In this document: piece after piece, positions 1-1,855 of the stretch | Position numbering within the stretch: the first letter of the stretch is position 1 | How the letters are laid out: every line of letters begins with the position of its first letter | Assembly: GCF_003334335.1 (NCBI RefSeq) | Contig: NZ_QOWQ01000097.1 | Length of the DNA: 1,855 nucleotides | Direction: 5' to 3' (one strand) | Source of the DNA: Escherichia coli | Lineage (GTDB): Bacteria; Pseudomonadota; Gammaproteobacteria; Enterobacterales; Enterobacteriaceae | Position numbers and translations under genes: made by a program | Notes under the pieces: model-generated | What the model was told of the DNA's origin: nothing | The model's input: only the letters and a program-made list of their open reading frames with translations | Databases searched by the model: none

Positions 1-1298
1 CTTTTGCTCTGAGCTGCCGCCGTCGCACTGCCAGCTGCCTCTGTCGCCTTCGTGGATGCCGTCGTGGCGCTGCCCTTTGCTGCTGACGCCTGTCTGGTCG
101 CCTCATCTTTTGAAGCAGACGCAGATGATGCCGATGACGCCGCCGAACTGGCGGACGATGCGGCAGCCGTTTTTGAGGATTCTGCGCTGGTTTCCGACGC
201 TTTCGCGTTCGTCTCGGATGTCTTCGCTGCGGAAGCAGACCTCGCTGCTGCGCTGGCCTGTACAGCGGCTTCGCCAGCCTTCGTTGTGGCTGTTGAAGCA
301 GACGATGCAGCACTTTCTGCCGATTTTCCGGCGGCGGTGGCACTGGCTGAGGCCTGCCCGGCACTTGTTGACGCGGCACTGGCAGATAATGCAGCCGCTG
401 TTTTTGAGTCTGCCGCAGCTGAGGCGCTCTGTCCCGCTGCCGTTTCAGAAGACCTGGCGTTCGTCTCGGACGTTTTTGCCGCCTTCGCAGAATTTGCTGC
501 CGCCGTTGCCGAGGAAGCTGCGCTGCTGGCGCTCGAGGCTGCGTTCGTTTCTGATGATTTTGCCGCCTCTTTTGAAGCCGACGCATCCCGTGCTGAAGTG
601 GCTGCTTCTGACGCTTTCGTGGTCGCGGTGGATGCAGAAGTGGCTGCTGATTGTTGTGACGCTGCCGCATTCGTTTCTGACGTTTTCGCGGCACTGGCAC
701 TGGTAGCTGCCGCGCTTTTTGAGGACTCTGCAGCAGCAGCACTTTTCGATGCTTCACTGGCCTTTGTTGATGCCGCTCCTGCGCTGGAAGACGCTGACTG
801 AGCCGACGACGCGGCCTGTCCGGCTGACGTGCTGGCTGCGCGTGCTGAGCCTGCAGCATCAGTCGCATGGGTTGCCGCCTCACGGGCTGATGTGCGGGCA
901 TCGCTGGCTGACTTCTTCGCGGCTGCCGTGTTCTGTGCCACTGCGGACGCGTTACGCGCCACCTCTTCCACCATCAGTTCAAAACGGCGCAGTGCCTCTG
1001 GCCGGACATCATCCTCCGTCATTGCACCGAGGAAATCATTCAGTGTGCCCGGCTTTGAGTCCTCATATACGGTGATAATCCCGGCGTGTGACGGCGGGAA
1101 TCCCTCCACCAACAGACTGACGCTGTACTGACCATACTCGACGTCCATTGTATAACGCCCGGCTTCATCCGGATTTTCTGAGGCCACTGTGTTCACCACC
1201 ACCGTGGTGCTGTTGCGCCTGGCCTTTAGCTGAATGGTGCAGTTTTGTATCGGCTTACCTGCACCATCTTTCAGTACACCTGAAATCAGTACTGCCAT
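1..1298 (-). CDS. stf: Side tail fibre protein (lambda Stf-like), N-terminal 432 codons; C-terminal part lies beyond the window start (3' partial)
   Basis: Hand translation of the minus strand (codons on plus triplets starting at positions divisible by 3) gives ATG at 1298..1296 and no stop down to position 3. An in-frame stop lies upstream at 1340..1338 with no alternative start between. Protein begins MAVLISGVLKDGAGKPIQNCTIQLKARRNSTTVVVNTVASENPDEAGRYTMDVEYGQYSVSLLVEGFPPSHAGIITVYEDSKPGTLNDFLGAMTEDDVRPEALRRFELMVEEVARNASAVAQNTAAAKK..., then an Ala/Ser/Thr-rich repetitive tract ending ...TASTKATEAAGSATAAAQSK at the window edge. From memory this closely resembles the N-terminal attachment domain and repetitive shaft of phage lambda Stf (orf-401) and E. 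coli prophage Stf homologues. The 64-nt gap to lom and the lom-then-stf gene order match the lambda layout. Missing from the ORF track presumably because it has no stop in the window. Confidence 0.9.
   Translation of the reverse strand, partial: MAVLISGVLKDGAGKPIQNCTIQLKARRNSTTVVVNTVASENPDEAGRYTMDVEYGQYSVSLLVEGFPPSHAGIITVYEDSKPGTLNDFLGAMTEDDVRPEALRRFELMVEEVARNASAVAQNTAAAKKSASDARTSAREAATHATDAAGSARAASTSAGQAASSAQSASSSAGAASTKASEASKSAAAAESSKSAAATSASAAKTSETNAAASQQSAATSASTATTKASEAATSARDASASKEAAKSSETNAASSASSAASSATAAANSAKAAKTSETNARSSETAAGQSASAAADSKTAAALSASAASTSAGQASASATAAGKSAESAASSASTATTKAGEAAVQASAAARSASAAKTSETNAKASETSAESSKTAAASSASSAASSASSASASKDEATRQASAAKGSATTASTKATEAAGSATAAAQSK
3..950 (-). repeat. 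Low-complexity Ala/Ser/Thr-rich repetitive tract within stf (predicted fibrous shaft region)
   Basis: From about codon 115 to the window edge the translation is dominated by A, S and T with periodic K/E/Q. Recurring peptide motifs include AAK(T/S)SETNA (4 copies), SASTATTKA(S/G)EAA (2 copies), a related TASTKATEAA, and ASSASSAASSA (2 copies). Confidence 0.8.
204..692 (-). repeat. Four dispersed copies of a degenerate 27-nt repeat encoding the AAK(T/S)SETNA motif
   Basis: Plus-strand copies: 204-230 cgcgttcgtctcggatgtcttcgctgc; 456-482 ggcgttcgtctcggacgtttttgccgc; 540-566 tgcgttcgtttctgatgattttgccgc; 666-692 cgcattcgtttctgacgttttcgcggc. All are in the same codon phase of the stf frame. Identity is by eye only, not computed. 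Confidence 0.7.
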
Positions 1299-1301
1299 AT
1301 T

Positions 1302-1307
1302 CCCCCC
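1302..1307 (-). promoter_or_regulatory. Probable ribosome-binding site of stf (G-run)
   Basis: The minus strand reads 5'-TTTTTTGTGGGGGGAAT-ATG; the purine-rich GGGGGG run lies 3 nt upstream of the stf ATG (effective GGGG core about 5-7 nt upstream). It lies immediately 3' of the terminator T-tract. Confidence 0.45.
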
Positions 1308-1337
1308 ACAAAAAAGCCCGCCTGAACCGGCGGGCTG
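1308..1337 (-). terminator. Rho-independent (intrinsic) terminator downstream of lom
   Basis: Seen directly: the minus strand reads 5'-AGCCCGCC GGTTCA GGCGGGCT TTTTTGT-3', an 8-bp perfect GC-rich stem (plus 1315-1322 pairing with 1329-1336), a 6-nt loop, and a T-tract (plus A-run 1310-1315). It sits 27 nt after the lom stop. The T-tract is only on the minus-strand side, so it is unidirectional for the lom/stf strand. Confidence 0.75.
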
Positions 1338-1362
1338 TCATAACACTGTGTTACCTGGCTAA

Positions 1363-1855
1363 TCAGAATTTATAGCCGACACCAACGATGAAACTGTTGG
1401 TACGCCAGTCACCACTGCCGGAGCCTTCATAAGCAATATCAATGGCCACGGATTCGGTCGGGTTAAACTGCACGCCAGCCCCCCACGCCAGAGACGTGTT
1501 GCTGTGGCGACCGTCATCACTTCCGGTCAGCACATCGTGCGTTTTCCCCTTGCTGTCAGTTACACGGAGATAATCCCCGGAAAAAGTCGACACACGACTG
1601 TAAGTCACACCCGCCATCGCATACGCGCTGAACCATTCATTCACGCGCACAGACGGCCCCGCCATCACGCTGAACCAGCGGTTACGCACGGAATCTTCAT
1701 GCCAGCGGGTATCGCTGTAATGCGTTTTTTGCTCATCTTTGGCATTGGCATAACTGAATGACGTCACCAGCCCCAGCATGTCCGTAAACTCATAACGGTA
1801 TTTCACGTTAATCCCGTTCAGATCATCGCTGCCTGGCATATCAGTATGGGTCTGA
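1363..1855 (-). CDS. lom: Lom/Ail/PagC/OmpX-family outer membrane beta-barrel protein (lambda Lom-like), C-terminal ~163 codons; N-terminus and signal peptide lie beyond the window end (5' partial)
   Basis: ORF track minus-strand ORF 1363..1839 (158 aa) ends ...WRTNSFIVGVGYKF with the terminal aromatic residue typical of outer-membrane beta-barrels. The sequence (GINVKYRYEF, WGAGVQFNP, alternating hydrophobic strands) matches my recollection of lambda Lom. The frame stays open upstream of the internal Met to the window edge (codons 1840..1854 = Q T H T D, no stop), and the 158-aa product lacks a signal peptide, so the true start is outside the window. Stop codon TGA at 1365..1363. Confidence 0.9.
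   Translation of the reverse strand, partial: QTHTDMPGSDDLNGINVKYRYEFTDMLGLVTSFSYANAKDEQKTHYSDTRWHEDSVRNRWFSVMAGPSVRVNEWFSAYAMAGVTYSRVSTFSGDYLRVTDSKGKTHDVLTGSDDGRHSNTSLAWGAGVQFNPTESVAIDIAYEGSGSGDWRTNSFIVGVGYKF

Follow-up and report, generated by a model that had tools for sequence, protein, structure and literature searches.

The 1,855-nucleotide (nt) stretch of Escherichia coli DNA analyzed here (contig NZ_QOWQ01000097.1, assembly GCF_003334335.1; hereafter the window) raises the question of which of its strands carries the genes. A program-made open reading frame (ORF) track lists several long frames on the plus strand, and the original prediction, made from the letters alone, held that the real genes, lom and stf of a lambdoid prophage, lie on the minus strand and that the track leaves stf out entirely. 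Our results indicate that the window is the lom-stf junction in the late (tail) operon of a lambda-like E. coli prophage, with both genes on the minus strand and with lomR-stfR of the K-12 Rac prophage as the closest type, and we put the probability of this reading at roughly 96%. Judged from the sequence, the identification of the two genes is far beyond chance.

Direct translation of the minus strand from 1298 to 3 yields 432 codons that start at an ATG and contain no stop, and several comparisons identify this frame as the 5' part of stf. The predicted product matches the prophage tail fibre N-terminal family PF08400 over the whole model (1-134/134, E 3e-72), shows 85% identity to lambda orf-401, which corresponds to the 5' part of stf, across the first 286 amino acids (aa) and 94% identity to E. 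coli K-12 StfR across all 432 aa, and also matches a series of tail-fibre PHROGs (best E 7e-132), while an NCBIfam scan of the fragment reached no model. Evolutionary tests on 27 distinct collinear homologues showed variable sites at sense codon positions 1, 2 and 3 in the numbers 80, 56 and 262, a pattern that indicates purifying selection on the minus frame, and the 432 sense codons stay open in every homologue. No in-frame stop occurs within 3..1298, either in the window or in the 26 collinear homologues compared with it (86-97% DNA identity). The frame is absent from the ORF track because it has no stop within the window, exactly as had been proposed.

The architecture of the Stf fragment is also that of a lambda-type side fibre. 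Its residues 1-94 have a single relative among solved structures, namely the collar domain of the Ur-lambda side fibre (PDB 9E7M/9MGH, "Tail fiber protein"). In the cryo-electron microscopy structure of Ur-lambda, Stf residues 1-91 form this collar domain, of which 12 copies (4 trimers) ring the tail where the tube protein gpV meets gpM, and a linker of ~10 residues then leads to residues 102-393, which were modelled as a trimeric proximal coiled coil (PMC12617516). By analogy, residues 1-94 of the protein encoded here would form a collar that clamps 12 copies (4 trimers) round the tail at the tube/tip junction, followed by a short linker and, from residue 102 to beyond the window edge, a trimeric proximal coiled-coil shaft. 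Residues 102-432 comprise 47 consecutive heptads of the form S-A-x-x-A-x-x with zero phase breaks; Ala occupies 32 and 44 of the ~47 positions at core registers 1 and 4, respectively, and self-identity at a lag of 7 residues is 0.43, compared with 0.22 +/- 0.02 in shuffles. Repeats in the underlying DNA are spaced at multiples of 21 nt. Tandem Repeats Finder returned almost nothing for the window because the DNA copies of the heptad are degenerate, and it is the autocorrelation of the protein that reveals it. This region is homologous to the coiled coil at residues 102-393 of lambda Stf, from which homology a trimeric state is predicted.

Comparison with lambda also suggests that the shaft encoded here is longer by 15 heptads, with the heptad phase kept. 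A blastn alignment breaks cleanly, such that positions 366-1465 of the reverse-complemented window correspond to lambda 4459-5558 and positions 1781-1855 to lambda 5559-5633, and the BLASTP offsets against lambda Stf agree with an insertion of 315 nt. Matches to Stf homologues in the viral set were found to stop at residues 288, 358 and 393, i.e., in steps of 70 and 35 residues, which suggests that shaft length may vary by whole heptads. The distal (receptor-binding) part of Stf and the gene for the Tfa chaperone lie outside the window. Phage lambda carries four Stf fibres, which speed adsorption, and their receptor is OmpC; by analogy with lambda, a fibre of this kind would be expected to assemble and bind a receptor here as well.

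Upstream of stf, the minus strand from 1854 to 1366 encodes 163 residues followed by a TGA stop, which we identified as the C-terminal part of Lom (frame 1854..1363). The fragment matches PF06316 (Ail/Lom) at model positions 37-199/199 (E 1e-102) and the Lom family phrog_108 (E 1e-87). The original prediction had named phage lambda Lom among the expected relatives, and although the Lom identity is sound, the type is that of Rac LomR (89% identity) rather than that of lambda (49%). The ORF track gives this gene only from an internal Met (1363..1839, 158 aa), as had been noted; numbered from the full-length protein of a nearly identical chromosome, NZ_CP019005, the Met at 1839 is residue 42 of the 199-aa Lom. 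The N-terminus supplied by that chromosome, outside the window, reads MRKLCAVILSAVVWLVAAGMPASA-AE and is signal-peptide-like by eye, and the C-terminus inside the window ends in ...GVGYKF, with a terminal aromatic Phe. Scores below the NCBIfam equivalog cut-offs for Rck-type complement resistance (110 vs 258 bits) and OmpX (86 vs 176 bits) indicate a Lom-type member rather than an Rck or OmpX. The product of lom is an eight-stranded outer-membrane barrel of the Ail/Lom type, encoded by a lysogenic-conversion ("moron"-like) gene. In lambda, lom is among the few genes expressed from the repressed prophage and is counted as a moron product (PMC7067206; PMC3594210), and comparable expression in the lysogen would be expected here by analogy. 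Position 1778 of the window (codon 26 of the lom fragment, Lom residue 62) is the sole difference from NZ_CP019005, with A here and G there, giving Met for Thr in Lom.

NZ_CP019005 is one of 17 complete E. coli chromosomes that differ from the window at one base, and DNA matches to the window were found in 4918 of 5426 complete E. coli genomes (~9 in 10) and in 237 phage records. It enabled the contig to be extended in both directions, which recovered both gene ends and the order J-lom-stf-tfa, as in lambda. On its minus strand, the tail genes are followed by J, lom (199 aa), stf (annotated as a 2976-nt coding sequence, 991 aa) and tfa, in a prophage that lies beside the trp operon and a truncated ompW. 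Distal to tfa (positions 7977-9766 of the extracted locus, L001), the truncated ompW abuts the prophage, and this part holds pseudogene debris together with an intact gene for an S-adenosylmethionine-dependent methyltransferase. This suggests integration of the prophage into ompW and earlier rearrangements at the tfa-distal end. A scan of the window for tRNA genes found none. The features located in the window are collected in Table 1.

Table 1. Positions of genes, protein regions, spacer elements and plus-strand ORFs in the 1,855-nt window.
Feature	Position	Strand	Basis or remark
stf, 5' part (codons 1-432 of a 991-codon gene)	3..1298	-	ATG 1298..1296; open to left window edge
Stf collar domain (residues 1-94)	1017..1298	-	phmmer to PDB 9E7M/9MGH, E 2.6e-49
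Stf Ala/Ser-rich proximal coiled coil (residues 102-432)	3..995	-	47 heptads S-A-x-x-A-x-x
In-frame segment in window and K-12 stfR, missing from lambda stf	76..390	-	315 nt, 105 codons, 15 heptads
lom, 3' part (residues 37-199 of 199)	1363..1855	-	stop TGA 1365..1363; start ~107 nt past right edge
Intrinsic-terminator-like hairpin and T-run between lom and stf	1310..1336	-	consensus scan; stem-loop 1336..1315
G-rich Shine-Dalgarno-like run GGGGGG, 3 nt upstream of stf ATG	1302..1307	-	read from sequence
249-aa Ala/Asp-rich shadow ORF antisense to stf	52..801	+	frame with third codon positions common to stf
216-aa Leu/Arg/Pro-rich shadow ORF antisense to stf, third antisense frame	56..706	+	not a gene
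Plus-strand ORFs of >=40 aa	52..801, 56..706, 719..1075, 829..1131, 1148..1375, 1234..1362, 1442..1573, 1504..1761	+	

The spacer between the two genes carries a conserved signal of its own. Read on the minus strand, it consists of AGCCCGCC-GGTTCA-GGCGGGCT, then TTTTTGTGGGGGGAAT, then the stf ATG. The hairpin has 8 bp (7 of them G-C pairs) and a 6-nt loop, and forms the core of both the minimum free energy and the centroid folds of the spacer. A hairpin with a T-run is present at this position, within the 77 nt upstream of stf, in 79 of 79 related loci, in three versions that are unrelated in sequence and include lambda's own variant, and the same element is labelled "terminator" in phages Ayreon and mEp460. 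Conservation of position across three unrelated sequences argues for function over mere inheritance, and on this basis the terminator upstream of stf appears to have been replaced in position, not merely inherited. Among the stf loci compared, which include those of lambda and the K-12 Rac prophage, the L019 group and L013 have other upstream genes or spacers. The sequence GTGGGG[G/T]GAAT-ATG is kept in nearly all of the 79 loci, and we infer that the GGGGGG run within it is the stf ribosome-binding site.

Late transcripts of lambda that have been modified by the Q antiterminator pass through terminators of this kind. By analogy, the hairpin would stop transcripts without antitermination, confining Q-independent lom transcripts, while Q-modified late transcripts would continue into stf, which would be served by the G-rich ribosome-binding site directly after the T-run. 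A sub-threshold Rfam match to Trp_leader was also recorded on the minus strand (window 1308-1390; 27 vs 41 bits), and was rejected: the match stems from the terminator hairpin AGCCCGCC...GGCGGGCTTTTTT, which is similar to that of an attenuator or terminator. In the nearest genome the prophage adjoins the trp operon, but the Trp_leader match itself is inside the prophage.

Each of the eight ORFs of 40 aa or more on the plus strand is antisense to stf or lom, as the original prediction stated for the long ones, and two of the eight cross the 64-nt lom-stf spacer. The accompanying warning, that a reader of the track would mis-annotate about 1.3 kb as Ala-rich proteins on the wrong strand, was justified as to the risk, although the four large ORFs cover ~1.08 kb (52..1131) and the Ala-rich label suits 52..801 only, not the Leu/Arg/Pro-rich 56..706. 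The composition of the heptad region keeps four of the six frames open over ~700 nt or more: Ala (GCN), Ser and Thr dominate the Stf shaft and Tyr, His and Gln are scarce, so that antisense and out-of-frame stops rarely arise. The long plus-strand ORFs are compositional shadows of the Ala-rich coiled coil, and neither the 249-aa nor the 216-aa ORF bears signs of selection. In the frame of 52..801, as derived from its coordinates, Ala codons are read again as Ala, and a stop requires a Tyr, His or Gln codon after a T-ending codon (T or C for Tyr). The ORF at 56..706 is not a conserved reading frame. Homologues carry stops in it at sense codons 171, 180, 198, 226, 264, 281, 311, 318, 337, 345, 348, 351, 375 and 401, the one family it matches is phrog_3324, over a piece of 36 residues, and sense position 3, where variable sites are most numerous, coincides with the second codon position of the ORF; with stops scattered among homologues in this way, we rejected the 216-aa ORF as a gene.

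The 249-aa ORF deserves closer scrutiny, given that it corresponds to lambda orf206b (same frame; 118 aa aligned at 85% identity) and to the protein family PHROG 560, and could be a real gene that overlaps stf on the opposite strand and shares its third codon positions. It matches phrog_560 end to end (1-249/249, E 2.5e-119), the frame is annotated in the lambda reference and in phage phi458, and it is open from sense codon 167 to 430 in 26 of the 27 collinear homologues. A first degeneracy test also seemed to favor coding, as transversion polymorphism was 18% at antisense two-fold sites vs 53% (P=6e-4), although the sense frame, used as a positive control, gave a far stronger signal (P=2e-9). 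However, when sites were split by context, the signal proved to be a context effect: 31 of 47 sites before GCN were transversion-polymorphic, compared with 4 of 19 other antisense four-fold sites and 7 of 37 two-fold sites. A pattern confined to sites before an Ala codon is not what antisense coding predicts, and both the signal and, after this split, the overlapping gene were rejected. Sense third positions were variable at 188 of 298 codons inside the overlap and at 74 of 134 in the N-terminal domain outside it, and thus show no extra constraint; third positions being no less variable within the overlap, the classical signature of overlapping genes is absent. Nor is the length of the ORF exceptional, for its open stretch of 786 nt compares with a median of 708 in 5000 synonymous-codon shuffles (P=0.39), in a part of stf where the stop-generating residues Tyr, His and Gln are scarce. 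Its ends vary as well, with stop 430 missing in nine homologues, stop 167 missing in one and a new stop at 347 in one, and the annotated lengths of this antisense ORF range from 206 to 249 aa. It starts with GTG, lacks a Shine-Dalgarno motif, matched no NCBIfam or Pfam-type family and is not called in the listed E. coli genomes annotated by the NCBI Prokaryotic Genome Annotation Pipeline (PGAP); neither this ORF nor orf206b has an exact counterpart in a collection of 15 billion proteins. A CRISPR interference screen of lambda scored both the orf206b target and stf as non-essential (PMC10695390), which for a protein-coding reading is uninformative rather than supportive. We consider an overlapping gene the least probable of the readings weighed here. 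Scarcely more probable is the suggestion that the plus strand at ~302..550 encodes an IsrG-like cis-antisense small RNA that lowers expression of the tail fibre gene. It derives from a weak match of the full Rfam model isrG (RF01390) to plus-strand positions 302-550 (34 bits, E 7e-7), at the 3' end of which lies a weak terminator-like site (528..545), and from the precedent of Salmonella IsrG, an experimentally verified RNA of 282 nt that lies antisense to the 5' end of STM2243, a putative phage tail fibre gene, with expression inverse to that of the gene (PMC2330248). Nonetheless, the score is one third of the gathering score (34 vs 100 bits), the alignment lacks entire helices of the model, and the isrG consensus, when translated in antisense, gives a Stf-like Ala/Ser peptide (SDTSASLAAQSSTAAGAAATRAEDAAK), so the match reflects homology between tail-fibre coding sequences. 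The terminator-like site has 5 pairs, of which 3 are G-C, and such sites numbered 3 against 1.6 +/- 1.7 expected in shuffles; a scan of both window strands found no promoter-like site. We therefore rejected the small RNA, its score being far under the Rfam threshold and accounted for by coding homology. In part, the Rfam isrG family thus models tail-fibre coding sequence. Even with both proposals combined, it is very improbable that the plus strand inside stf makes something functional, be it an orf206b/PHROG 560 overlapping gene or an IsrG-like cis-antisense RNA that tunes fibre expression.

The 27 homologues also show a strong codon-context bias in stf codons 135-432 (window 3-896). At 14 of 14 sites with a four-fold codon directly before AAN, the third base of that codon is a purine in every homologue; an NCT, NTT or NTC codon followed by an A-starting codon occurs in 1 of 32 cases in the heptad region vs 23% in neighboring genes; and third positions before an Ala codon are transversion-polymorphic at the frequency given above vs ~20% elsewhere. 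Candidate explanations are repeat ancestry, avoidance of CTA(G) and selection at the mRNA level.

Several observations weigh against parts of the lom-stf interpretation as set out so far. The entire spacer folds no better than shuffles (z = -1.5), the hairpin alone being distinctive. The open stretch of 699 nt in the frame of 56..706 exceeds that of synonymous shuffles (P=0.005), an excess that we attribute to the non-independence of duplicated heptad units. A simple, crude scan detected no sigma-70-like lom promoter in the J-lom spacer of NZ_CP019005, and G+C content differs little between lom (53.5%), J (56.6%) and stf (54.7%), which is not the composition expected of a moron. A terminator hairpin with a T-run does lie downstream of lom (1336..1310), as in morons, and a second hairpin is located between J and lom in NZ_CP019005. 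The label therefore rests on these flanking terminators and on the lambda precedent, and "moron" describes lom only in part.

A further alternative accepts both gene identities and concerns the functional state of the prophage, so that it is compatible with the lom-stf junction and does not exclude it. The genes may belong to a defective (cryptic) prophage, as lomR and stfR do in Rac, in which case stf would give no fibre in this host and only lom would perhaps be used. We regard this as possible, though rather unlikely. The nearest named relatives are indeed the cryptic Rac genes, and the debris distal to tfa in NZ_CP019005 includes fragments of tail fibre assembly, DUF4376, DinI and ompW genes. 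On the other hand, the tail module of that prophage is annotated as intact from FI to tfa (Z/U/V/G/T/H/M/L/K/I/J, lom, stf, tfa), including the 991-aa stf; the open frame of stf and its pattern of purifying selection persist across the 27 homologues; and phages that form plaques (PhiR series, Kati, Turner, mEp460) carry nearly identical segments.

The annotation error foreseen for the window has already been made in public records. In phage ev099 (LR597635 / NC_049953, region 1630-3862), the stf frame is intact at 722 aa, but the tail fibre annotation covers no more than the final 268 codons, and the remainder is filled by three opposite-strand "hypothetical proteins", one of which is 90% identical to the 216-aa ORF of the window. 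Similarly, the intact 953-aa stf frame of phage phi458 (OP434518, region 936-3861) is annotated in its distal part only, and an ORF on the opposite strand that shares 95% identity with the 249-aa ORF takes the place of the 5' part. The lambda reference NC_001416 retains orf206b (lambdap90) antisense to orf-401 (the relation of the frames was derived manually from coordinates), and PHROGs carries the antisense ORF as family 560, whose members are most plausibly understood as shadow ORFs lying antisense to stf. In E. coli genomes annotated by PGAP, the genes called are the correct ones. The biology of the window is already known, being of textbook lambda-type organization, and raises no new question; in practice it serves as a documented example of an annotation trap. 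The heptad shaft leaves frames open, gene callers have truncated stf, wrong-strand "hypothetical proteins" have entered GenBank and RefSeq records (ev099, phi458, lambda orf206b), and a PHROG family built from them will go on attracting matches. ORF tracks that drop frames leaving the contig edge raise the risk of such errors. Of secondary interest is the strict heptad architecture of the fibre shaft and its apparent length variation by whole heptads.

Among known systems, the lomR-stfR region of the K-12 Rac prophage (b4570, b1372) is the closest, with the same gene order and spacer. The N-terminal 432 aa of Stf are collinear at the 94% identity given above, 1552 nt of DNA align at 92.9% identity, the Lom part agrees at 89%, and stfR has the 15 heptads extra to lambda, as the window does. 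The differences are that K-12 lomR is split by IS5, whereas lom is uninterrupted here within the window; that StfR, at 1120 aa, is longer than the 991-aa protein of the nearest full-length relative, so that the two differ distally, beyond the window; and that the prophage of the nearest relative lies at ompW/trp rather than at the Rac site. The resemblance of the window Lom to the eight-stranded barrels of the Ail/Lom/OmpX type (PF06316) extends from the profile match to the terminal ...YKF. As for PHROG 560 and orf206b, the ORF at 52..801 is an end-to-end match, although no test here supports protein coding. The laboratory strain of lambda carries a frameshift in stf (PMC12617516), in contrast to the stf of the window, and lambda differs further in a Lom that is only 49% identical and in a coiled coil without the 105-residue segment. 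Lambda nonetheless shares the J-lom-stf-tfa order found in NZ_CP019005, a Stf collar and first 286 residues that are 85% identical, homologous signals ahead of stf (terminator hairpin and ribosome-binding site), and even the same-frame antisense ORF, orf206b.

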